From positions 118,680-172,958 of IMG/VR virus record IMGVR_UViG_3300037466_003757: a DNA stretch of 54,279 nucleotides; one strand, given 5' to 3'. Within the stretch, counting starts at the first letter, position 1; every line of letters starts with the position of its first letter. The translations under genes were made by a program, and so were the position numbers. This stretch comes from a virus. Its lineage: Duplodnaviria; Heunggongvirae; Uroviricota; Caudoviricetes. The notes beneath the pieces were generated by a model that saw nothing but the letters and a program-made list of their open reading frames with translations, was not told the DNA's origin and made no database searches. Positions 6,004 through 38,346 of this stretch are shown one piece after another.

Positions 6004-6747
6004 ATGACGAAACGACGAATCAACAAAAATATGGCGAGCATCGCCTATCGGGATCACCGGGACGCTCAGAAGGCACTCAACCGTAAGGTCGCCATGGGCG
6101 AGATCGAGGATACCATCGACGAGATTTCGATGATCCAGGCGACCTCGACCGGTCTGAGTCTCGCACTCGCGATCACACCGGAGCACCCGTACTGGGAGCA
6201 CGGACCCATCCATATCTTTCAGGGCGATATCACCGATCTGCCGATCAAGTTCGACGCGATCGTGAACGCCGCCCGTCCCTCACTCCTCGGTGGAGGCGGA
6301 GTCGACGGAGCCATTCACAAGGCGGGCGGACACGCCATCGTGAACGAGATCCACGATCTTATCGACAGCGGCGAGATCGAGACTCCGTTCCGTTCGGGCG
6401 AAGCGGTCATCACGAACGCCGGGCGGATGCGTACCGACTACGTCATCCACGTCGTCGGTCCGGTCTACGACAATCGGGACGATTCCGAACAGTTGGTCCG
6501 GAAGCAGACCGATCTGTACAACTCGTATCTCGCCGCGATCGAACTCGCCGAGAACTGGAATCTGAAGCGTATCGCATTTCCGCTCATTTCGTCCGGCTCG
6601 TACAGCTGGCCTCTCGACGACGCGGCGAATCTCGCGGTTCGTGCCGTTCTCGACTCGGAGACCATGATTTCGGTGACGTTCGTCGCGCGTACCAACGAGA
6701 CGTTGATGGCGATCGAAGACGCGGTTACGCAAGTACTGCAGTTCTGA
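6004..6747 (+). CDS. Macro domain (ADP-ribose binding/hydrolase) protein with N-terminal extension
   Basis: IFQGDIT...DAIVNAA..SLLGGGGVDGAIHKAGG, GEAVITNAGRM...VIHVVGP, IAFPLISSG. Confidence 0.9.
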   Translation: MTKRRINKNMASIAYRDHRDAQKALNRKVAMGEIEDTIDEISMIQATSTGLSLALAITPEHPYWEHGPIHIFQGDITDLPIKFDAIVNAARPSLLGGGGVDGAIHKAGGHAIVNEIHDLIDSGEIETPFRSGEAVITNAGRMRTDYVIHVVGPVYDNRDDSEQLVRKQTDLYNSYLAAIELAENWNLKRIAFPLISSGSYSWPLDDAANLAVRAVLDSETMISVTFVARTNETLMAIEDAVTQVLQF

Positions 6748-6858: not shown

Positions 6859-7659
6859 GTGCCGATCGTAATTCTCGAGGGTTGTGACGGGGCCGGCAAA
6901 ACAACTCTTGCCGAAGAGATTCAAGATGTCTGGTTTCGGATCAAGCAACCGGAAGACAATCGAATCCCGCAAGTGACGACAATTCATTTCGGACCGCCCG
7001 ATCCGATAACGTCCGACGAAACTCTCGAAATGTACGGAGCACGACTTCGAAAACGACTTCTTCGTGATATCGAGGCATTCGATCACACCGATTCGACCAA
7101 ATTACTTATTGTCGATCGGCTTCACATCGGATCGTACGTGTACGGTAATCTGTTCCGACCCGAGACATCGGTCGGCGGATGGGGCGAACTCGGACGTGAC
7201 GGTCTGTCGTACGTTGACGACGCATACGCTGCCAAAGGCGCTGTCATGGCAATTCTTCTTCCCGACGCCGGTACACTCGTTCGTCGCTCAGCATCGCGTG
7301 TGGACGAGTTCCTCGATTCCGTTTCTTTGTCCGTCCCCGGCGACAGTAACGCTGCATCGGAACGTGCACGGCAATTGGTCGAGATTGCGACTGCATACGA
7401 GGTGTTCGTTCGGATGTACGGCAGCGATTACGCCACGTACCGTCGAATCGGACATCCGTATTACACGGATCCGGAACGTAATCCCGGATATCCCGACATC
7501 GCTTACGAAACGGACGTCAAACTGGTCGCTGCTGACATTGTTGGACGTGCAATCGATGCAAGTCTCGATGTCGCGCGAAACGAGGCAGACATTCTGGATC
7601 CCGACGGATCGATCAGACGAGCAATCGCCGAAGACCGATTGAAGATGGAGAAGGAATGA
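6859..7659 (+). CDS. Thymidylate-kinase-like dNMP kinase
   Basis: IVILEGCDGAGKTT Walker A; IVDRLHIGSYVYG (DR motif); overlaps the TS-like gene. Confidence 0.8.
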   Translation: MPIVILEGCDGAGKTTLAEEIQDVWFRIKQPEDNRIPQVTTIHFGPPDPITSDETLEMYGARLRKRLLRDIEAFDHTDSTKLLIVDRLHIGSYVYGNLFRPETSVGGWGELGRDGLSYVDDAYAAKGAVMAILLPDAGTLVRRSASRVDEFLDSVSLSVPGDSNAASERARQLVEIATAYEVFVRMYGSDYATYRRIGHPYYTDPERNPGYPDIAYETDVKLVAADIVGRAIDASLDVARNEADILDPDGSIRRAIAEDRLKMEKE

Positions 7660-8546
7660 AGGCTTTCGAATTCGACAACGCCCACCAGGGATTTCCGAAG
7701 CTTCTCGATTATGTCCGTCTGAACGGCGTCGAGCGTCCGAGTCGTGGTGGATCCATGTACGAAGTCGAGGACGTCACCGTTTCGTTTCCTGCGGGACCGC
7801 GGTACGAAGTACCGGTACGTAAGGGCAGCGCACCGTTGATCGGATATATGGAGGGCGCACAACTCGTCGGAGCATTCGAAGCGAACGACGTCATGAAAAA
7901 GTTGTGGCCGAAATACTTCGATTTCTCCGACGGATACGGAAACTACGGCGCCCGTATGTCGAATTCGGATCAGCTTGCATGGGTTTTCTCGGAACTCAAG
8001 GACAATCCGGACACTCGTCGCGCTGTTGTCACGATGTGGGATCCGTCGATGGACGTTCCGCCGTCGCACATGGATCACCCATGCACGATCGGCATCATTT
8101 TTCGCGTTCGTGACGGATATTTGAACATGACGGTCACGATGCGTTCGCAGGATCTGATTCTCGGTCACGGACCAGATATCATTCAGTTCGGAATGCTGCA
8201 GCAGACATTCGCGACGGCGTTGGAACTCGAATGCGGTACGTATACGCATCACATGATCTCGTGTCATATCTATGAACGTGATATTCCGCAAGCGTGTCGA
8301 TTCCTGAACGAGTTGGATGTTACGCAAATTCGGGCGAAATACCACGACGAACCACAGACCATCGCACCGTTGAGTTGTCCCGGATGGACATTCGAGCAAA
8401 TTCAAAACGAAGCGAAGAAGTCGCTGACACTAAGCGAGAACGGCGACAAACTCGATCTCGAGTTCGGGACTCCGCTCGGTTTCTCGATTCATTCGAAAGC
8501 GCATCTGCGTCTGCTCAATATCGCGTTGAAGGACATTCGGAAATGA
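7656..8546 (+). CDS. Thymidylate synthase homologue, dCMP-modifying type (probable dCMP hydroxymethylase-like)
   Basis: DTRRAV, catalytic HPC, MRSQD...G...D and HIYE motifs; Asp (codon 8175-8177) at the position of E. coli TS Asn177. Confidence 0.8.
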   Translation: MKAFEFDNAHQGFPKLLDYVRLNGVERPSRGGSMYEVEDVTVSFPAGPRYEVPVRKGSAPLIGYMEGAQLVGAFEANDVMKKLWPKYFDFSDGYGNYGARMSNSDQLAWVFSELKDNPDTRRAVVTMWDPSMDVPPSHMDHPCTIGIIFRVRDGYLNMTVTMRSQDLILGHGPDIIQFGMLQQTFATALELECGTYTHHMISCHIYERDIPQACRFLNELDVTQIRAKYHDEPQTIAPLSCPGWTFEQIQNEAKKSLTLSENGDKLDLEFGTPLGFSIHSKAHLRLLNIALKDIRK

Positions 8547-9322
8547 CTCGATTGATCAACGTCATCTGCGTACCTGGTACGTTCGAGCGTACCGGTGGAT
8601 CCGTTGTCACGGGAATGCTCGCAAACGTCGTACCGCATCTCGACGAGCGATTTCTTCCGATGCAGGCCGATTATCCGGCAGCGTACGGAATTCCGATGGG
8701 CGAAGCAGCGAGTATTCAGACCGGCGTGACGAACGTGCTTACCATGATCAGAAATGCACCGAATCCAGTCGTTCTCATCGGATACTCACAAGGCGCGCAA
8801 GTCGTTCGTATGATTCTCTCCGAACTGGCAGCCGGACTGCATCCCGACCTCCAAGTCATCGGCGCCGCATTGATAGCAGATCCATGGCGAGAACCCGGAG
8901 TTGCGAACGGAACACCAGATTTACGGACCAGATTGAACGGTTGGGGAATTGCTGGATCGGGTGGTGACGTTCCAGAAAATATCTGGTTCTGCGAGATTGC
9001 GTATCCGGGAGATATGATTCCGAACGCGGACGGCGATAATCTCGTCCGTATTTTCGCAGACTGGACCGCGTGGATGTCAGTCAGTGACATGATCGGATGG
9101 GGCAACGACATCCTGAACAAGATCCGTTCGAATCGGTTCCAACGGGTAGTAGTCAACTGGCGGAATCCGTTCTCCGCGATTCAGCAAATTCGTCGCTCCG
9201 AGGAAACCGTCAGAGGATACCTGACCGGTACGCACACATGTTACGGTGTGGCACTCGTACCGGGTACGAACATCACATACTGCCAGTATCTGGCCGAACA
9301 AATGAACGCAAACGTGTTCTAA
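8543..9322 (+). CDS. lysB: Lysin B-like cutinase-family serine esterase
   Basis: VICVPGT, YPA, VVLIGYSQGA nucleophile elbow, ALIADPWR, GWGIAG, PGDMI. Confidence 0.8.
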   Translation: MTRLINVICVPGTFERTGGSVVTGMLANVVPHLDERFLPMQADYPAAYGIPMGEAASIQTGVTNVLTMIRNAPNPVVLIGYSQGAQVVRMILSELAAGLHPDLQVIGAALIADPWREPGVANGTPDLRTRLNGWGIAGSGGDVPENIWFCEIAYPGDMIPNADGDNLVRIFADWTAWMSVSDMIGWGNDILNKIRSNRFQRVVVNWRNPFSAIQQIRRSEETVRGYLTGTHTCYGVALVPGTNITYCQYLAEQMNANVF

Positions 9323-9351: not shown

Positions 9352-9960
9352 ATGACAGAGACAAAGACAAAGACAACCGTACACGTGACAAACAAACGCC
9401 GCGATCGCAAAAAGGTCGAACGCTGCAGTTGGACGAAGACCAGCGTGCTGGCAGAATACACGGCAAATCCGACATCGGTCTATGCTGCACGATTCAACGG
9501 AACCGACGAACAGCTCAACGCACTCGACAAGGTTGGCGTCCCGTTCGATGCCAGATGGTTCGTCTGGTGCGCCGTATTGAACCGTCACGTTCCTCTTCGT
9601 AAAGGCGCGTGGGTCGTCAAGGACGTCGAAGGATGGCAGGTGATGAGCGATGCGAAGTTCACCACACTGTACTCTAGAACCGTTGTCGACGGACCGCAGA
9701 CCGATATCGCGGTCAAGCTTCCGCGGCCCAATACGAACGCCGGTGCGGTGCCGAACGAAGTTCGATTCACGAGCAACGACTTCGAGATCGCCGTTGTAAA
9801 CGGTCGTGTCTATGCCGGATCACTCGATTCGAAAGACTGGGAAACGCAATTCGACGGCAAGACGATGGAAGACTACGCGCTCGCATTGCTTGCCGCGAGT
9901 CACTACGCCCAGGGCAAACTCGCGTACAAGGCTGACATGACGGACGGGAGCAATAAGTGA
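9352..9960 (+). CDS. Hypothetical protein
   Basis: ATG at 9352 after GTGAGAAAAG; coupled to the next gene by overlap. Confidence 0.65.
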   Translation: MTETKTKTTVHVTNKRRDRKKVERCSWTKTSVLAEYTANPTSVYAARFNGTDEQLNALDKVGVPFDARWFVWCAVLNRHVPLRKGAWVVKDVEGWQVMSDAKFTTLYSRTVVDGPQTDIAVKLPRPNTNAGAVPNEVRFTSNDFEIAVVNGRVYAGSLDSKDWETQFDGKTMEDYALALLAASHYAQGKLAYKADMTDGSNK

Positions 9961-10547
9961 CGGACGATCGCCCATCATGGGACGAAGTCTGGTTGACAAC
10001 TGCATCGACGGTCGGTCGTCGGTCACGTTGTGTGCGCGGTAACGTCGGATGCGTTCTCGTATCACCCGACAATCGCGCACTCAGCGTTACGTACGTCGGT
10101 CCTCCAAAAAATTACGAGCCGTCAGACAACGACAACGCGTGCGACAAATGGTGTCCACGTGGAGCTGGTAAGAGCGCTCCCGGCGCTGCTTACGACGAAT
10201 GCAATAGCATTCACGCCGAGGCTAACGGAATTGCGCGAGTCAACAGTAGCGAACTCATCGGTGGAACGGCGTATGTGAGCAGTGTCTGTTGTTTCAATTG
10301 CGCCAAACTTCTCGCAGCGGGTCAAGTGAAACGTGTTGTGACATTTTTACGTGAAAATGAAATACACCGTAAGCCGTCGAACGCAGTTGCGTATTTACTC
10401 GACTCGGGAATTGAAGTCGAATTATGGTTCGATGACGGAATAAATCAGTCTTCATACGATATCTATCGCAACGAAGATGCGCTTCACGCGTGCGTTGATC
10501 TCGAACATTACGCAAAATACGGAGCTGGAGTTACACGTCGTCCCTAG
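9957..10547 (+). CDS. dCMP deaminase family protein
   Basis: RPSWDE, SRCVRGNVGCVLV, HAEAN and CCFNCAK zinc ligands. Confidence 0.85.
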   Translation: MTDDRPSWDEVWLTTASTVGRRSRCVRGNVGCVLVSPDNRALSVTYVGPPKNYEPSDNDNACDKWCPRGAGKSAPGAAYDECNSIHAEANGIARVNSSELIGGTAYVSSVCCFNCAKLLAAGQVKRVVTFLRENEIHRKPSNAVAYLLDSGIEVELWFDDGINQSSYDIYRNEDALHACVDLEHYAKYGAGVTRRP

Positions 10548-11303: not shown

Positions 11304-12000
11304 GTGGTCGACCGCTTCGATGATGAAGTTCCGCTTCAAAGAACTTTGAGCATATACGCTTTACATATCGGAGATTATCGATATCGCTACGTGGGCTTAA
11401 CGAGTATAGACGTTCAAGTTCGGCTAAGACAACACGTCCGTAACGCAGACGTCGGAGTTCGGACGCCAATTTATGACTGGATGCGTCATCATGGTGCGTG
11501 GAAAGTACGTGTTGAAACGCTTGAAGTTTGCGATTCGCTTGATGATCTCGATTTGGCAGAGAAAAAGTGGATTGCGATTATCAGAAACCGTGATAATAGT
11601 CTGCTAAACGTTCTTGATGGTGGATATGGCAATTTCGGCTATCGATTCACTCAAGAGCAACGTATGGCGTTGAGCGTAACGATGAAAACGGTCAATGAGA
11701 CGTTGATCAGAAAGCCGTTATCAACGGAATCACGTCGTAAAATGAGCGAATCTGCCAAAAATCGCGAACAAAACGCGTATAGCTCTGAAGCCAAGCAGAA
11801 CATGGCGATTGCGCAACGTAAGCGGTATCAATCAAAACCGATGTCTGACGAGACCAAAGAAAAAATTCGTCAAGCCAATCTCGGTAAGAAAATGGACGAA
11901 GCGACGAAAAATAAAATTCGGATCGCGAATAAGGGGCAGAAGCGAACTGAAGCGCAACGTGAAACTATGAAACGTGCGCAAGCGGCGCGAAAGGCCGTCA

Positions 12001-12008
<8 letters not shown>
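11304..12008 (+). CDS. GIY-YIG homing endonuclease with NUMOD3-like repeats
   Basis: IYAL...YVGLT, RLRQH, AEKKWI, LLNV..GG; C-terminal S.ETK.KI repeats; AT-rich; overlaps the DNA polymerase start. Confidence 0.85.
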
Positions 12009-14806
<2,798 letters not shown>

Positions 14807-22413: not shown

Positions 22414-23493
22414 ATGAATCACACAGTGGCCCCACGAGCGATCGTGTCCGGATTCACTGCCGAACAGACAAACGGCAGTCCTAGAACCGGATATCCCGCA
22501 TTGTCGCCAGGTATCAAACTGGCGTTGGAAACAATGGGATACGAAACACGAATGGCACCGATGCGCGTCGATACGGTAGACGAATGGCTATCGGAATCAG
22601 ACGTTCTCGTCATGGGAATTTCTCCGATTATCGCCGTCGGGTCACGATATTTATATGGAGCCCTCGAAGCTATCCGGAAAGCGCGCCGTCACAACTGCGC
22701 GCTTGTGTTTTATATTTCGGATTGGCAGGTACCGCTTCTCACGTCGTCTGTCACGACAATTCTCAATGGACCGCACCGTCTGACTAAATATTTCATGCGT
22801 CATCGGACAGACTTCTTCTGGGCGAATCATCACGTTGATGAACTTCTCACCGTCGTACAGGCGTTGAAGGATCGTCCGTGGCCCGGTACGCTCATTCCGT
22901 CGCATCCGTGGCGTAACGATATGCCGAAAATCAGCAGATACGTTCCGGCGCGGCGACTGTATTTCTTCGATCCGACAATCGTAACGTCCGGTCAATGGGC
23001 GCCGCATTCTGTGCAGGCGACTCCGGACGAACGCAAGCGTGAATGGGTCATGGCAGCTCTCGGCGACTACGACGCATGGTTGCAGCAACAATGCGTGACA
23101 TGGCCTGTTCGGTCGTTCGGCGGTAAAACGAACTTGATCGATGAGAACGGCAACAAAATCGTCAATCCACGCGTTCAAGAACCTGTCATTCACGAGAACT
23201 ACGCGCAAGTGTGGGGTGGTCTCGGTCCGAAACACGGCGCGGACGGTATGGGATGGTGGCGCAGTCGCTGGGACTTCATCCTGAAGAACGGCGGAATTAT
23301 CTTCGGCAGCAACGAAGAGATGTCGCTGATGGGTGGTCCGTTCGTCAATCGGTTATCCGATATCGAATCGATGACGACACCGCAATTGGTCGAACTGCAG
23401 AACGCTCAGCGTGCGGCCCATCGCGTCGAAACGATGGAACAAGTCACCGAAACGTTCCGGCAAGCCATCGCGGACGCGAGGGCAGAACTGTGA
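22414..23493 (+). CDS. DNA beta-glucosyltransferase-like (GT-B) glycosyltransferase 1
   Basis: N-terminal strand-helix (AIVSG...LALETMGYE), DVLVMG, LVFYISD resembling the T4 BGT YLFTD strand; paralogous to 23684. Confidence 0.6.
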   Translation: MNHTVAPRAIVSGFTAEQTNGSPRTGYPALSPGIKLALETMGYETRMAPMRVDTVDEWLSESDVLVMGISPIIAVGSRYLYGALEAIRKARRHNCALVFYISDWQVPLLTSSVTTILNGPHRLTKYFMRHRTDFFWANHHVDELLTVVQALKDRPWPGTLIPSHPWRNDMPKISRYVPARRLYFFDPTIVTSGQWAPHSVQATPDERKREWVMAALGDYDAWLQQQCVTWPVRSFGGKTNLIDENGNKIVNPRVQEPVIHENYAQVWGGLGPKHGADGMGWWRSRWDFILKNGGIIFGSNEEMSLMGGPFVNRLSDIESMTTPQLVELQNAQRAAHRVETMEQVTETFRQAIADARAEL

Positions 23494-23687
23494 AGAACGC
23501 TATCGGGTTATGGATTTGTGCGCTTGGATTTCACAAAAAGTCTGAATGGTCCGACTTCGGAGAATTGACGACGACAAAATCAGAAGACTGCGATGACGAT
23601 ATCTTTCACGAATTCTCCGTAATACAGAAACAATGCCCGCGCTGCGGAATGGAGAAGACTCGTTTGGAATGGAGGCGAGTATATTGA
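23490..23687 (+). CDS. Small Cys/His protein (DUF1660-like)
   Basis: LWICALGFHK...CPRCG; 4-bp overlaps at both ends. Confidence 0.6.
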   Translation: MKNAIGLWICALGFHKKSEWSDFGELTTTKSEDCDDDIFHEFSVIQKQCPRCGMEKTRLEWRRVY

Positions 23688-24688
23688 AAATATTGCTCAC
23701 CGGTGGCACATCGTCGCAGACTCACGAAACGACCAAACGTCAACCAGAGACGCTGGTTGGTCTCATGGCACGCGCACTACGCGATCGTGGACACGAGGTT
23801 TACACTCGTGCATTCTCAGTTCGTGATATCGAAACTGACGACACGGGATGGGATAACGCATTCGATTTCGCGTTCGTCGGACAATCGCCATTACGAGGAC
23901 TCGGATCATCGTACTGCTACGGCGCTCTCGCCGCGCAGCATCGTTTCCGCGGTAAATGTGCGATTTTCACAGACGACACGGACACGAAGAAAATGCGCGC
24001 CGAATGGTTGATGGCGCTCAAGAAACCCGCTGATTTCGTCAAACCGTTCTGGCATTACAAGCGTGACTGGGAAACTGCACGATCGCGCGCCGTGCTTCCG
24101 CGACTTCTCGAGCAGATCGAGTGGTTGATCGGCGACGATGCATCCACATACCCGCAGACATTCGTACCGGGTTGGACGTATAACTTGGCGTTTCGTTCGG
24201 GCGTCCAGTTATCGCCACACGCGCGTTTGAGCGTTCGCGCGGCCGATCCATCGAAATGGACGCAGGCGACCGTGACACGTACAATCCCAGACGAGAACGA
24301 ACGTTATTGGGCGTCGTGTTGGCGCGCGAACGCGCGTGAAGTACAAAAAATGGGAATGCAAAGCTGGGCGTTCCAGGAGATCAATCGTCTCACCTGGAAA
24401 GAACTGGGATCCGCTTCCGGACTTCTCGCTCCGTCTGCTGCATGGTCACCAGAAGTTCGTCTCGCCGTCGAATCAGGAGTTCCCGTCGCGACCGAATGGC
24501 GCGTGATGGGCCCTCAATTCGGTGAGCCGTTCGAGTCACTGGCCGCCAATATGGAAGAAATGAAACAGAATGAGCTTGACGATCTCGCCGCGCAACAAAA
24601 AGCGGCGTTGACCGATAAGGGATTCGAGAAAGACGAATTCCCGAACGTACTCGAAGACATGATCAACAAGACTCTGGAGGCGCAGTGA
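23684..24688 (+). CDS. DNA beta-glucosyltransferase-like glycosyltransferase 2
   Basis: TTG start after GGAGG; KILLTG...ALRDRGHEV, FDFAFVG, CAIFTDD; shares SxYxYGAL with 22414. Confidence 0.6.
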   Translation: MKILLTGGTSSQTHETTKRQPETLVGLMARALRDRGHEVYTRAFSVRDIETDDTGWDNAFDFAFVGQSPLRGLGSSYCYGALAAQHRFRGKCAIFTDDTDTKKMRAEWLMALKKPADFVKPFWHYKRDWETARSRAVLPRLLEQIEWLIGDDASTYPQTFVPGWTYNLAFRSGVQLSPHARLSVRAADPSKWTQATVTRTIPDENERYWASCWRANAREVQKMGMQSWAFQEINRLTWKELGSASGLLAPSAAWSPEVRLAVESGVPVATEWRVMGPQFGEPFESLAANMEEMKQNELDDLAAQQKAALTDKGFEKDEFPNVLEDMINKTLEAQ

Positions 24689-25236
24689 CCGACGATTGGA
24701 AGTGGCTGGAATCCACCCGTCAGCTTCAGATCGAAGCTTACGGTAAGGATCCAGGCGAACTTGTCGGGGACGAGCGCGGTAATTACTGGACAACCATGAT
24801 GTTCGCGGCTAGTGATGAGATCTCCGAATTCGGTAATGAGATCCACTGGAAGCCGTGGGGGAAAAACCGCGGAGAAATTATCAATAAATCTGCGGCACTT
24901 GGTGAACTTGTCGATGTCCAACATTTTGTTGCAAATTTACTGCTCTCGATTGGCGTCACCGAAGACGAATTCTGGGCTGCGTATCGTGAAAAGCAAGAAC
25001 GTAACAAAGCTCGTCAACAAACCGGCGGTGGCTACGACAGCAAGAAAACGAAATGTCCGAATTGTAAGCGTGAACTCGACAAGCCCGGTTCGTACCGTTC
25101 GCTCAGGGTGAGAGTCGGTACCGGTGCGGGTACTCAGGAAGACGTGGAAAGCGGTATTCTGACGCATTCGTTACAGTGCGTCTCATGTTTCCATCAGTTC
25201 GATTACGAGCTCAAGACGGGAGAAAAACTTCCATGA
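24685..25236 (+). CDS. All-alpha dimeric dCTPase/dUTPase (T4 gp56-like) with C-terminal Zn ribbon
   Basis: DEISEF...WKPW...GELVDVQHF...N.ARQ...GY; CPNC...CVSC. Confidence 0.8.
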   Translation: MTDDWKWLESTRQLQIEAYGKDPGELVGDERGNYWTTMMFAASDEISEFGNEIHWKPWGKNRGEIINKSAALGELVDVQHFVANLLLSIGVTEDEFWAAYREKQERNKARQQTGGGYDSKKTKCPNCKRELDKPGSYRSLRVRVGTGAGTQEDVESGILTHSLQCVSCFHQFDYELKTGEKLP

Positions 25237-26484: not shown

Positions 26485-27051
26485 ATGACCGGATACTGGA
26501 TTTGGGATGAGTCTAAAGAGATTACCGCATACGCTCGTATGAGATTGAATATTGCGTATATCGGTGTCACTTCTAATCCGAATAAACGTTTCCGCGATCA
26601 TCTACGAGATTTTCCGGATAGCGTCATTATTGTTCTCGAAACCGGTATTAAACCAATCAATGCGTGGGATAAAGAACGATATTGGCATACTTTTTTCGAA
26701 GATCTTGATATGATTATTGAGTCACATACTCAATACGATGTATCAGATATAGGCCATAAAGCTCGAAATTACGGTCCGCTTTCTGATGAACAGAAACAGC
26801 AAATTTCTTTGACTCTTAAAGGACGTTCATCGATTTTTAAGGACGTTCCAAAAACCGAAGAGCACAAGAAAAAGCTTTCTGACACCAGTAAACGAAACGA
26901 TTCGGGCAAACGATTTGGCGAGCATAGCAAACGATCGCGGGCTATGTGCATCGAATGCAACTTTGAATCCAATCCAGCAGGAATCGTCAAGCACCAGAAG
27001 AACTCTGGACATAGCGGAATTAGGAAGTGGTTAAATGATCCCGTTTGCTAG
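26485..27051 (+). CDS. GIY-YIG-like homing endonuclease
   Basis: AYIGVTSNPNKRFRDH, KERYW, NUMOD3-like KTEEHKKKLS, C-terminal CxxC...H...H; AT-rich. Confidence 0.75.
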   Translation: MTGYWIWDESKEITAYARMRLNIAYIGVTSNPNKRFRDHLRDFPDSVIIVLETGIKPINAWDKERYWHTFFEDLDMIIESHTQYDVSDIGHKARNYGPLSDEQKQQISLTLKGRSSIFKDVPKTEEHKKKLSDTSKRNDSGKRFGEHSKRSRAMCIECNFESNPAGIVKHQKNSGHSGIRKWLNDPVC

Positions 27052-28333
27052 CGTTCAGGGTTTGGGGGGCGGGATGGAGCTTGGAATCATCCAATCGGGT
27101 AGTTTTGAGCTTGTACATCGTACTGGTGGATTGGATCTCGGCGCGCCACTCGTAGAGCAAAATCGTAAATTATACGGTTGGAATTGGACGTCCAATTTTA
27201 CGAGTAATCAACGAAAATGGCAACAAGTAGACGTTGCGTTTGTATCTAGTAACGCTCCTTGTTCAGCTTTTTCTACATTGACGTCGAAAACTCTTCGCGG
27301 AACATCGGCGAAAGTGTTGCAGTATACAGACGAGGTATTCGACTTCGTCGCGATGCAGAAGAAAACACCGCTGCTCGTCTCGATCGAGTCCGTTCAGCAG
27401 GCGTTCTCGCTCGGTCGTCCATATTTCCAGCAGAAACGTCTCGAGCTCGAAGAGAAGACCGGCAAACAGTGGGATCTCATTTGGGTATTCCAGTCGAATC
27501 AGTCGCTCGGTGGCGCGTCCGTTCGTCGTCGCGTATTCATCACGCTCTCACAGATTCCATTCGGTGTCGAGTACGCGCAGCCCGCTCGTATCGCACGATT
27601 CGGTGACGCGGTTCGCGATCTGCAAGGTCTCGAATTAACCACAACGTTGCAGCCGTACCGTCGCCCGTCAACGTGGTGGTCGACATCTAGACGCGCTGCT
27701 GACGGCGTGGACGGTCATTTCAACGATCCGCGATGGAATAACGAGTTCGCCGAATTAATCGCCATGTCGGACGCTATGGGGCAACGATGGGCCGCTGGGG
27801 AGTCGTTAGAAACAGTGCTTCGGCGAGTGTGGGCGCACTATCAGCGTTTACCGCACGAATGGCAGCGAAACGTTCACAAGCACGAACCGCGCAATTTCGG
27901 TATGGGAATCAATCAGACGTCGTGCTGGGATCCGGACGCTCTTGGACGTGTCGTTACGGGCGCGGGTCCTATGATGTCCGTGCATTGGGCCGAACCACGA
28001 TTGCTGACATATCGTGAAGTCTTTCGTTTGCAGGGATTCCCGGACACGTATCGGCTTTACGGTTCACGTGACTATAAAAAAGCATCAACAGTGGCTGGAA
28101 AGGGAGTTCCAGTCGATGCGGGACGCTGGCTCGGCGAATGGGTGGGCAAAGCGTTCAACGGTGAGCCGGGTACGATTCTCGGTGAGAAAATCGGCGATCG
28201 TGAACGCAAGATCGATCTTACGCACGCGTGGAAGAACACGTACGAGTTCGAAGCACCATGGCGGTACGCGAAACACAGTCTGCACGAACAAATCGGTAAT
28301 CCGGATTGGGATCACATGCAGCATACGGCATAG
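27035..28333 (+). CDS. Divergent C5-cytosine DNA methyltransferase-fold enzyme
   Basis: Motif I QGLGGG, IV NAPC, VI IESV, VIII RRRVFI, IX LTYREVFRLQGFPD, X AGKGVPV. Confidence 0.85.
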   Translation: MIPFASVQGLGGGMELGIIQSGSFELVHRTGGLDLGAPLVEQNRKLYGWNWTSNFTSNQRKWQQVDVAFVSSNAPCSAFSTLTSKTLRGTSAKVLQYTDEVFDFVAMQKKTPLLVSIESVQQAFSLGRPYFQQKRLELEEKTGKQWDLIWVFQSNQSLGGASVRRRVFITLSQIPFGVEYAQPARIARFGDAVRDLQGLELTTTLQPYRRPSTWWSTSRRAADGVDGHFNDPRWNNEFAELIAMSDAMGQRWAAGESLETVLRRVWAHYQRLPHEWQRNVHKHEPRNFGMGINQTSCWDPDALGRVVTGAGPMMSVHWAEPRLLTYREVFRLQGFPDTYRLYGSRDYKKASTVAGKGVPVDAGRWLGEWVGKAFNGEPGTILGEKIGDRERKIDLTHAWKNTYEFEAPWRYAKHSLHEQIGNPDWDHMQHTA

Positions 28334-35686: not shown

Positions 35687-36385
35687 TTACGGATCGTACA
35701 TCGTGAACGAATCAAGGTTTTTCGAATACACCTGTGCGCCAGCTGGTTTGTTACCTTGTAAAATGAATCCGCCGTACAAATGACTTGAGTCGCGTGGCAC
35801 GATGTTCGTTGAATCTGTCCACGATCCGAGAAGCGATCCGTTGTAGTAGCCGGAATAGACGCCGCTGATTTGTTCGAACGTGACGATGCCACCAGCGTTG
35901 AATGTGGGACTGTTCCACAACGCTCGCTGTGTGAATGTACTACCACTCACGGTATACATGGCCATGCCTTGTGTAGCGTTATAGAACAATAAAGCGGCAC
36001 AAACGCCGCTAGCTGGTGTACCTGTGTTATTGAGAATCAGAATAGATCCATAAGTAGTGGAACCGTCAGATGCCGGATTAGCGACAACGATTTCTACGTG
36101 TTGACGTGTTGGACTCGCGAATGTAAAGGCGTTACAAATGCCCCAACTAACTGGTGAACCGCTCGCTGCAGCGGCACATTGAGCCGCGTTGCTTGCGATA
36201 ACTGGCGGTGTCGCATTGACTGTCCAATTCGAACCGATCGAACCGTTCGCTCTATTGAAATCGTCGGTAAAACCGTATTGATAGAGCAAACCGAGACCAA
36301 GTCCCGATACCTTTTTGATTTGGCCGAGACTCATGCCACTGATCTTCTGGATTTGTCCAAGACTGAGTCCACTGATCTTGGGCAT
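35687..36385 (-). CDS. Minor tail / lectin-like protein
   Basis: FTDDFNRANGSIGSNW beta-rich domain; N-terminal triple K(I/V)SG repeat. Confidence 0.7.
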   Translation of the reverse strand: MPKISGLSLGQIQKISGMSLGQIKKVSGLGLGLLYQYGFTDDFNRANGSIGSNWTVNATPPVIASNAAQCAAAASGSPVSWGICNAFTFASPTRQHVEIVVANPASDGSTTYGSILILNNTGTPASGVCAALLFYNATQGMAMYTVSGSTFTQRALWNSPTFNAGGIVTFEQISGVYSGYYNGSLLGSWTDSTNIVPRDSSHLYGGFILQGNKPAGAQVYSKNLDSFTMYDP

Positions 36386-38346
36386 TATGCACTCCTGAAG
36401 TAAATCGTATTCGGGTCCTCAGAGGCGCCGCTAGACGTCGCCGTATTGTATTGCGCTTCAGTTCCGACCCATAATGTAATGGTAGTGGCTGTTCCGTTCT
36501 TGGAACCCTTGACCGTACCTGTAGCTAATTTCGTAAGAGCGATTGCAGCGGAACCATTGATGTCCGCATCCACGATCGAGCCATCGACAATTTTCGCAGA
36601 TGTGACCGTATTATCTGTCGGTGTTCGGGTATCAGAAAGACGTGAATCGTTTCCCTGGCACGCAGTACCAGCTGTTGTTCCGAAACTAACAGCCAGCGTT
36701 CGATCGCTACTGAGATCGCCACCACCGGTGAGTCCAGTGCCGGACGAAATCAATCGAGATGTTTGTACAGCTCCAGTGATTCGGGAGTCGTTTCCCTGTG
36801 CTGCAGTTCCCGCCGTAGTACCGTACGAAACAGCTAACGAGACGTTGGATGATAACGCGCCGCCGCCTGTCAAACCTGTTCCAGCTGAAACAGTGCGCGT
36901 ATTCGGTACAGCAGACGTAATACGAGAATCGTTGCCTTGTGCTGCGGTTCCCGCCGTGGTGCCGTAAGCTACCGATAACGTTTGATTACTCGATAATGGA
37001 CCACCGCCGGAAAGACCGGTACCGGCGATTACCTGCGTGGTTTGCGCTACATATCGTGCATCGAGTCCAGATAACGGTACGTCAGTAGATTGAACGTACC
37101 AGATCGCCGCTGATGCATTGTATTGAGCAATCAACGCTTGATTTTGTAACGTCAGCGTACCAGTCGTAGAACCACCGGCCACATTGAATACGTCGGAGCC
37201 TCCGAGTGCGAGACTTATCGTATTAGTGGAAGAATCAACTTTCTTGACCGCGACTCGTGTCTTGTCTGCAGGTGCGGTGGGAAACGTGACAGTAAACGTA
37301 CCGCCAGAAGCATTGGCGGCGACGAAGTCGTTAACCGCCATCGTATAGTTAGCCGTTTTAGTCACTACAGTGAATTTATCGGCTTTGTTCGTGAGACCAG
37401 GGACGGTCACCGCGGTCGCGGAACCACCGAGATCTCCGCCGCCGAGTTGAATCGTACCTTGTGTGGATGATGTGGCTTGTGGTGCTGGTGGTCCGACGAT
37501 ATTCTCAGCGATCGAACCCCAGGCACCGGACGTTTTCGGACCGTAGATATCGCCGGTAGCGACGTTCAAATACATGTCGCCGTTGTTGCCAAGTCCTGCA
37601 GCCGGAGCCGTCGTTCCCGTCCGCCATACGGACGATGCTCCGGTCGCTCCTGTCGGACCGATGATCGAGTTATTCAGCGACCACGTCGTACCGTTATATG
37701 TGTAGACATTTCCGTTACCCGATGTGTCGAGATAGAAATCGCCAGACAAAGCACCCGCGACTGTTCCAGGCGCACCAGAACCAGTGAACCATTTACTTCC
37801 ACGTTGGCCGGTATTGCCTTGAACGCCTTGAATACCTTGATCACCTTGATCGCCTTTATCGCCCTTGGGAAGGACAAAACTCAGCGATTGATTCGGGGCA
37901 GTACCACCAACCGTCACAGATGCCGTTGTACCGGATGTTACTGTTCCGATAGACAATGTATTGGCGGGACCGATATCACCGGTGTCGCCTTTGGCACCGG
38001 GTGCGCCAGGTGGACCTGGATCGCCTTTCGGTCCCTGCACTGTCGGTTTTTGCGTCAATGGATCCGCCACAATTTCCGGCAGCGTGAAAAGTTCGTATGT
38101 ACCGGATGGAGGAACGACGAAATCATACGTTCGCCGCCAATTTCCGATACAAATTTGAGCGCGTGCAGGTCCAGGATCGAGCGATGGTGATGTCATTACT
38201 CCGCCGACGAGAACAGCGGTCACCGGTGTCTGTGTAATGACCGCAGTGCCTGTGCTGTTTCGTCGCGGATTGAAGCAGAAAAACTCGACATAACCGGAGT
38301 CTTGGTCACCGGAGATGTCCTGGAAATTCTCTGTGATGACCGTCAT
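36385..38346 (-). CDS. Tail fibre with collagen-like and 47-aa repeats
   Basis: GPKGDPGPPG, GDKGDQG; three GTGL.GGG.LSS...GTTAGTA.QGNDSR repeats. Confidence 0.85.
   Translation of the reverse strand: MTVITENFQDISGDQDSGYVEFFCFNPRRNSTGTAVITQTPVTAVLVGGVMTSPSLDPGPARAQICIGNWRRTYDFVVPPSGTYELFTLPEIVADPLTQKPTVQGPKGDPGPPGAPGAKGDTGDIGPANTLSIGTVTSGTTASVTVGGTAPNQSLSFVLPKGDKGDQGDQGIQGVQGNTGQRGSKWFTGSGAPGTVAGALSGDFYLDTSGNGNVYTYNGTTWSLNNSIIGPTGATGASSVWRTGTTAPAAGLGNNGDMYLNVATGDIYGPKTSGAWGSIAENIVGPPAPQATSSTQGTIQLGGGDLGGSATAVTVPGLTNKADKFTVVTKTANYTMAVNDFVAANASGGTFTVTFPTAPADKTRVAVKKVDSSTNTISLALGGSDVFNVAGGSTTGTLTLQNQALIAQYNASAAIWYVQSTDVPLSGLDARYVAQTTQVIAGTGLSGGGPLSSNQTLSVAYGTTAGTAAQGNDSRITSAVPNTRTVSAGTGLTGGGALSSNVSLAVSYGTTAGTAAQGNDSRITGAVQTSRLISSGTGLTGGGDLSSDRTLAVSFGTTAGTACQGNDSRLSDTRTPTDNTVTSAKIVDGSIVDADINGSAAIALTKLATGTVKGSKNGTATTITLWVGTEAQYNTATSSGASEDPNTIYFRSA
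36622..37044 (-). repeat. Three degenerate 141-nt tandem repeats in the tail fibre
   Basis: GA(A/G)TCGTT(T/G)CC recurs at ~36644, ~36785 and ~36926; boundaries approximate. Confidence 0.75.

Follow-up and report, generated by a model that had tools for sequence, protein, structure and literature searches.

A thymidylate synthase homologue with the active-site signature of a dCMP hydroxymethylase, predicted to open a T4-like cytosine-modification pathway in an actinophage lineage

We report that the thymidylate synthase (TS) family gene at 7656..8546 (+ strand, 296 aa) in a 54,279-nucleotide stretch of the IMG/VR virus record IMGVR_UViG_3300037466_003757 is predicted to encode a folate-dependent hydroxymethylase of deoxycytidine monophosphate (dCMP), that is a 5-hydroxymethyl-dCMP (5hm-dCMP) synthase, and not a thymidylate synthase, a reading to which we assign a probability of roughly 65%. 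The whole stretch, hereafter the 54-kb window, is the final part of a phage genome that is complete, measures 172,958 bp and has direct terminal repeats. The best reading of the gene and its surroundings is that this TS homologue starts a pathway to glycosylated 5-hydroxymethylcytosine (5hmC) resembling that of phage T4, a type of system that is already known, and the phage probably replaces the cytosine of its DNA with a sugar-decorated base, as T4 does. The preference for dCMP over deoxyuridine monophosphate (dUMP) as the predicted substrate is well supported by the active-site residues, and an inference of this sort is not new; there is more certainty about dCMP as the substrate than about which product is made.

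Membership of the TS family, the signature of the active site, and both the make-up and the conservation of the gene neighbourhood were established directly. The open reading frame matched PF00303 at 83.5 bits (cut-off 24.3; E 1.8e-23) and the PHROG thymidylate synthase families with an E value of 1.6e-40. It also keeps the catalytic and phosphate-binding residues of the TS fold, namely C143, R30, R121, R122, R163, S164, E66, Y97, D166, H204 and Y206, whose counterparts in Escherichia coli ThyA are Cys146, R21, R126, R127, R166, S167, E58, Y94, D169, H207 and Y209, and its recognition as a TS homologue by the first-pass annotation, made from the letters of the window, is thus borne out. This is the sole PF00303 gene of the 172,958-bp phage, and ThyX was not found anywhere in that genome. 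The start codon overlaps the stop codon of an upstream kinase-like gene (ATGA) and is preceded by the ribosome-binding site GGAGAAGG. A megablast comparison of 50,697 phage records with the 6 kb surrounding the gene returned zero matches, so that this region has no close sequenced relative among them.

The residues that distinguish TS family enzymes from one another were read from MAFFT alignments that took in E. coli ThyA, T4 gp42, SPO1 gp29 and the homologues of phages M6 and XP12, with the reference proteins coming from annotated records. In the motif RSQDLILGHGPD (8142..8177, + strand; residues 163-174) the conserved R163, S164 and D166 align on E. coli R166, S167 and D169, while D174 (codon GAT, nt 8175-8177) aligns on both E. 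coli N177 and T4 gp42 D179. An Asp had indeed been noticed twelfth from the conserved Arg at the place of E. coli Asn177, and the alignment puts it there. The second informative stretch, DHPCT (8073..8087, + strand), aligns without gaps with LAPCH of E. coli, DFMCT of T4, NVPCP of XP12 and DRPCN of SPO1, and because the DHPCT/LAPCH alignment is gap-free, positions 143, 146 and 147 (E. coli numbering) are mapped independently of the choice of alignment: D140 corresponds to L143, C143 is the catalytic cysteine and T144 corresponds to H147. At positions 143/147/169/177 the TS homologue (D140, T144, D166, D174) therefore reads D/T/D/D, which is also the signature of T4 gp42 and of MilA, its best sequence match in the PDB; the XP12 methylase reads N/P/D/D, SPO1 gp29 and the M6 enzyme D/N/D/N, and E. 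coli ThyA L/H/D/N. Trp80 was also considered for telling methylases and hydroxymethylases apart, but gaps make the alignment around it unreliable, and it is not used here as a main argument.

The presence of Asp174 is not due to chance. Every member of a 17-sequence alignment of the closest relatives has it, and in a larger alignment of 167 sequences (the 150 best representatives from a library of 1.8 billion proteins, together with the references) Asp occupied the N177 position in 153, always accompanied by Thr in place of H147 and Asp in place of L143. The Asp at position 169 is kept by the TS homologue and by 166 of the 167 aligned sequences.

Among characterised enzymes, the users of dCMP (T4 gp42 and the XP12 enzyme) have Asp at the N177 position and the users of dUMP (E. 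coli ThyA, SPO1 gp29 and the M6 enzyme) have Asn. The literature agrees that N177D shifts preference to dCMP (PMC8670742) and equates N177D with a dCMP substrate (PMC13326640, 2026), and in the MetaGPA study positions 177 and 147 were the top two discriminators between modified and unmodified contigs (PMC8670742). In a preprint from NEB, IMG/VR had already been screened for deaminase-adjacent TS homologues that have Asp in place of N177 (10.1101/2024.12.05.627091). The first-pass annotation had held that the Asp specifies dCMP rather than dUMP, and this agrees with the characterised enzymes as well as with the published rules.

As regards the product, PMC13326640 links methyl products to a bulky, hydrophobic side chain at position 143 and hydroxymethyl products to Asp or Glu there, T4 gp42 and MilA being examples of the latter; it also gives D169N as the mark of flavin-dependent 5-hydroxy-dCMP synthases, all tested synthases of 5-hydroxycytosine (5hoC) having this substitution. 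Since the TS homologue has Asp at the L143 position and retains Asp169, these rules point to 5hm-dCMP. It combines Asp at N177, an acidic residue at L143 and a retained Asp169, which is the pattern of the T4 gp42 type. A canonical TS would have Asn177, a hydrophobic residue at 143 and His147, which are replaced here by Asp174, Asp140 and Thr144, respectively; the XP12-type methylase shares Asp177, but position 143 is acidic (Asp) in the TS homologue; and the D169N of 5-hydroxy-dCMP synthases is absent, Asp166 being retained. Three products, 5-hydroxymethyl-, 5-methyl- and 5-hydroxy-dCMP, had been left side by side in the first-pass annotation; D140 and D166 favour the first of these, and the same residues speak against the other two. 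In the reaction that we propose, Cys143 would attack C6 of dCMP, the N3/N4 face of which would be read by Asp174, and methylene-tetrahydrofolate would donate its one-carbon unit to C5. With Asp140 in place of the hydrophobic Leu143, the exocyclic methylene would then be hydrated, not reduced, to yield 5hm-dCMP.

Several genes around the TS homologue are candidates for the further steps of such a pathway. Directly upstream and translationally coupled to it lies a P-loop deoxynucleoside monophosphate (thymidylate) kinase-like gene (6859..7659, + strand; PHROG 761, E 2.2e-10; weak match to PF02223, E 0.0014), a candidate 5hm-dCMP kinase, and downstream follow a gene of the dCMP deaminase family (9957..10547, + strand; PF00383, E 7.2e-13; PHROG 174, E 8.8e-33) and a family A DNA polymerase with 3'-5' exonuclease (PolA; 11974..13824, + strand; PF00476, E 3.9e-50). 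Around 14 kb further downstream is a second group, made up of GT-B-type glycosyltransferase (GT) genes, a MazG gene and a relative of DNA cytosine-C5 methyltransferases. The MazG gene (24685..25236, + strand; PF08761, E 5.1e-08) encodes a MazG / dimeric-dUTPase-type nucleoside triphosphate (NTP) pyrophosphohydrolase related to the T4 dCTPase/dUTPase gp56 (BLASTP E 3e-08 over 41 residues), with a substrate specificity that is only predicted. The methyltransferase relative (27035..28333, + strand) is divergent, and matches PF00145 (E 5e-11) over profile positions 57-319 only.

The three GT-B genes differ in how well they can be placed. The clearest is the GT4-like glycosyltransferase P0166 (25176..26483, + strand; likely start 25233), a homologue of Forza gp127, which is annotated 'glycosyltransferase'. 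Its AlphaFold2 (AF2) model (pLDDT 80.6, pTM 0.83) had 1Y8Z as the top Foldseek match (E 1.4e-10) and resembles the T4 alpha-glucosyltransferase (AGT): the top five VIA matches were all T4 AGT (Z 23.5-23.9, 337-347 residues aligned; Z 23.9 over 345), with which other GT4 enzymes tie to within 1 Z. The other two are phage-specific, GT-B-like paralogues of one another and candidate DNA glycosyltransferases. For the product of the first (22414..23493, + strand), the ESM Atlas model is nearest to clusters of GT4-type glycosyltransferases (TM 0.63-0.66). The second (23633..24688, + strand; likely start 23669) is weakly similar to the T4 beta-glucosyltransferase (BGT), its family profile matching BGT with a probability of 14% and an E value of 0.0019 and placing a family Asp on BGT Asp100, and ESM Atlas feature matches to clusters of PF09198 (score 0.94) give no more than a lead. 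In hhalign comparisons of the GT-like family with T4 BGT and AGT, probabilities were below 3%; Pfam scans of both products and of 32 family members taken singly identified no glycosyltransferase family, and the AF2 model of the 23633 product, for which 5 sequences were aligned, reached a pLDDT of just 39 and could not be used.

Taken as a pathway, the adjacent kinase and the nucleoside diphosphate kinase of the host would convert 5hm-dCMP to the triphosphate while the gp56-like MazG enzyme depletes dCTP and dUTP; the phage PolA would incorporate 5hmC, and up to three GT-B enzymes would glycosylate it on the DNA. The dCMP deaminase would supply dUMP to the thymidylate synthase of the host, as Cd does in T4. 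Like the product itself, full substitution of cytosine, the target of glycosylation and the role of the deaminase are what we infer from this arrangement.

Several other genes are interspersed with these. A Macro domain protein (6004-6747; PF01661, E 2.4e-30), which may bind or remove ADP-ribose, is encoded directly upstream of the kinase-TS pair. Between the TS homologue and the deaminase lies a LysB-like esterase gene (8294-9322; PHROG 102 'endolysin', E 1e-43; weak cutinase and PE-PPE matches), an odd site for a lysis gene and a hint at a mycolic-acid actinobacterium as host. Each of the two gene groups is interrupted by a GIY-YIG homing-endonuclease-like gene, one lying between deaminase and PolA (11304-12008) and the other between the glycosyltransferase and the methyltransferase relative (26485-27051); the latter is lacking in Forza.

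The neighbourhood recurs in related phages. In 80 IMG/VR loci chosen by TS similarity alone, counting homologues within 10 kb of the TS gene, we found the dCMP deaminase in 76 and PolA in 77, the kinase in 52, GT-B-like families of the 22414 and 23633 types in 51 and 34, respectively, and the MazG NTPase in 26, 17 of these being matched directly by T4 gp56. Dihydrofolate reductase (DHFR) was found in none of the 80 loci, nor in the phage genome itself. The module is also present in the Gordonia phages Phendrix, GodonK, Forza and GMA2, in the lake phage DSL-LC01 and in Micrococcus phage Kurnik. In Kurnik, which has the deaminase, PolA, GTs, MazG and the methyltransferase relative, the TS slot (L009:4656-5405) is occupied by a 51%-identical orthologue of T4 gp42, annotated 'thymidylate synthase', which speaks for functional equivalence of the two TS types in this setting. 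The same label is attached in GenBank to the homologues of Gordonia phages Phendrix (L003:7974-8858), GodonK, Forza, Sixama and GMA2. The Phendrix protein, the sole Gordonia record checked residue by residue, has the D/T/D/D signature, and to judge by these residues the label in the Gordonia phage records is probably wrong. In the Actinomycetia phage DSL-LC01, a UDP-galactopyranose mutase gene (L010:11938-13035) adjoins a glycosyltransferase gene and the MazG and methyltransferase-relative genes, and recalls the phage-encoded sugar mutase connected with the glycosylated cytosine of Rhizobium phage RL38JI. The TS gene does not feature in the Dishui Lake paper (PMC10611076).

A number of points weigh against hydroxymethylation of dCMP followed by glycosylation. 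The function of the enzymes in this clade is a prediction from sequence, and identity to T4 gp42 is just 29% over 126 residues. Few characterised enzymes stand behind the rule for position 143, which is termed a correlation in PMC13326640, and five of seven deaminase-linked Asp177 enzymes gave 5-methyl-dCMP (5m-dCMP) in the NEB work (10.1101/2024.12.05.627091). In a maximum-likelihood tree, ThyA and the XP12 enzyme were split from T4 gp42, the dUMP hydroxymethylases and the clade of the TS homologue (Shimodaira-Hasegawa-like approximate likelihood ratio test, SH-aLRT, 96), but joining XP12 to that clade was not rejected by the approximately unbiased (AU) test (log-likelihood difference 0.40, p-AU 0.49), and because a topology with XP12 as neighbour is left standing we have dropped the tree as evidence. 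In the second gene group, the BGT-like assignment of the 22414 and 23633 genes is weak, the GTs could glycosylate something other than DNA, and the methyltransferase relative would be without an obvious substrate if substitution of cytosine were complete.

The enzyme might instead be a dCMP methylase of the XP12 type, making 5m-dCMP so that 5-methylcytosine replaces cytosine, with the deaminase turning part of the 5m-dCTP or 5m-dCMP into thymidine nucleotides, which would explain why the phage needs no TS of its own. Asp177 is common to the XP12 enzyme, a sister relation of XP12 to the clade is not rejected by the AU test, and the genome has neither a second TS nor ThyX. The TS-deaminase-PolA neighbourhood is moreover that of the cytosine-modified contigs from which those five of the seven tested TS homologues came, and a deaminase from that study, mSCD-B5, made dTTP from 5m-dCTP (10.1101/2024.12.05.627091). 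Yet the methylases ThyA and XP12 have Leu and Asn, respectively, at the place of Asp140, and the XP12 enzyme has Pro at that of Thr144. A methylase produces dihydrofolate, for the recycling of which DHFR is needed, and neither the genome nor the 80 related loci provide one. The three module-linked GT-B-like genes would require a hydroxyl acceptor, and the equivalent slot of Kurnik holds a gp42 orthologue. We therefore consider a methylase improbable.

Far less probable still is another C5 product, made either by a flavin-dependent 5-hydroxy-dCMP synthase of the RB69 gp48 / DLP3 gp80 type or by an enzyme with an undescribed product. GT-rich neighbourhoods accompany 5hoC pathways too, and the mutase beside a GT in the relative DSL-LC01 is an arrangement described for RL38JI; but D169N occurs in all tested 5hoC synthases, whereas this Asp is kept here and in all but one of the 167 aligned homologues. 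That the gene encodes a genuine thymidylate synthase converting dUMP to dTMP, as the GenBank annotation of the related Gordonia phage records has it and as an adjoining dCMP deaminase able to provide dUMP might suggest, is scarcely credible when Asn177, His147 and Leu143 are all replaced and N177D is known to shift preference to dCMP.

The preferred reading, a dCMP hydroxymethylase, leaves the methyltransferase relative at 27035 to be accounted for, and it is here that the first-pass annotation had seen a conflict, in that an Asp-type TS homologue and a DNA C5 enzyme are encoded together. Our comparisons do not uphold this as an anomaly of one genome. The 27035 product does not have the canonical motifs of C5-methyltransferases: it has PCS, ESV, RxR and GKGV, and all 15 homologues checked have PCS, E[S/C]V, [S/A]xRxR and GK[G/A]V, where PCQ (motif IV), ENV (VI), QxRxR (VIII) and GN (X) are canonical. 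The 27035 product does retain PC, the Glu of ENV, RxR and motif IX. Among isolates, the relative occurs in 15 of the 50,697 phage records, representing 10 distinct phages, every one of which has an Asp-type TS. In the forward direction, 23 of 29 long IMG/VR records picked by their TS gene carry it (5 of 6 in the subset at least 90% complete), and in the reverse direction, TS genes are present in six of the eight new records that measure 40 kb or more and were found via the methyltransferase relative alone. All eight TS genes found in the reverse set, two of them from 19-kb fragments, show a D/C/T/D/D signature. Because the isolate, forward and reverse tests all show co-inheritance, the pairing of the TS homologue with the methyltransferase relative is a conserved design and not an accident of one genome. 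In a complete 131.5-kb phage record, one homologue of the methyltransferase relative (L102; IMG/VR record G010, 36056-37303) has a single in-frame TGA.

How the two enzymes might be reconciled can be put in two ways. The first, which takes up the partial, timed or context-split substitution suggested by the first-pass annotation and is tentative, is that 5hmC substitution is incomplete, depending on sequence or time, and that the 27035 enzyme methylates or alkylates the remaining cytosine at a specific motif. With the Cys of PC, the Glu of ENV, RxR and motif IX in place, flipping of cytosine and attack on C6 are plausible, and the dCTP specificity of the MazG enzyme is only predicted. On the other side, the PCQ, ENV and X motifs deviate in all 15 homologues checked, and the restriction of the gene, among isolates, to phages with an Asp-type TS would be odd for an ordinary anti-restriction methylase. 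Searches of the whole phage revealed no CmoA, no TET/JBP (Tet_JBP) gene and no second PF00145 gene; a route for the methyltransferase relative through carboxy-S-adenosylmethionine was set aside for want of CmoA, and one to 5hmC by methylase plus TET for want of a Tet_JBP gene. A second and more speculative possibility, which we regard as unlikely, is that the Lys-type methyltransferase relative acts on DNA containing 5hmC or glycosyl-5hmC and not on free cytosine. Attack on C6 would then activate the 5-CH2-O for replacement or removal, and the TS homologue, the GTs and the methyltransferase relative might jointly give a widespread lineage of actinophages a hypermodified cytosine not described before.

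Recognising cytosine-modifying phages by Asp at N177 is already common practice, and in this respect the core finding is ordinary. What it predicts is that a whole lineage of actinobacterial phages, including Gordonia phages Forza, GodonK, Phendrix and GMA2 and Micrococcus phage Kurnik, has hydroxymethyl-cytosine in its DNA, probably in glycosylated form; our literature search found no published report of hydroxymethyl-cytosine in actinophages. The conserved pairing with an atypical C5-methylase relative poses a testable question on new cytosine chemistry, for which isolates exist.

Among known systems, T4 gp42 shares with the TS homologue the TS fold, the catalytic Cys, the Asp of D179, Asp at L143, Thr after the Cys and the counterparts of D169, R166, S167, H207 and Y209. 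The partners are analogous as well, namely a kinase, a gp56-like NTPase, a deaminase and GT-B glycosyltransferases. Unlike gp42, the TS homologue belongs to a separate large clade, is approximately 50 residues longer and differs in its C-terminal region, and T4 lacks the C5-methylase relative found among its partners. MilA, the cytidine monophosphate (CMP) 5-hydroxymethylase of mildiomycin biosynthesis (PDB 5B6D, 5JNH), is the best sequence match of solved structure (E 7.8e-15), and its signature of Asp, Cys-Thr and Asp aligns residue for residue, although it is bacterial, acts on the ribonucleotide CMP and serves an antibiotic pathway. The dCMP methylase of XP12 is alike in the Asp at N177 and the adjacent deaminase, but has Asn143, Pro147 and Trp80 and a DHFR gene alongside, where the TS homologue has Asp, Thr and Tyr and no DHFR. 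The dUMP hydroxymethylases SPO1 gp29 and M6 resemble it in the Asp at L143 and in a long C-terminal extension past the TS core, and differ in having Asn at 177 and 147, hence their dUMP substrate. RB69 gp48 and DLP3 gp80 (PMC13326640) have N177D, an acidic residue at 143 and GT-rich clusters in common with it, but not their D169N. Finally, E. coli ThyA shares the fold, the phosphate-binding arginines, Cys146, Glu58, Tyr94, Asp169, His207 and Tyr209, whereas its Leu143, His147, Asn177, Trp80 and C-terminal tail are replaced or absent in the TS homologue.

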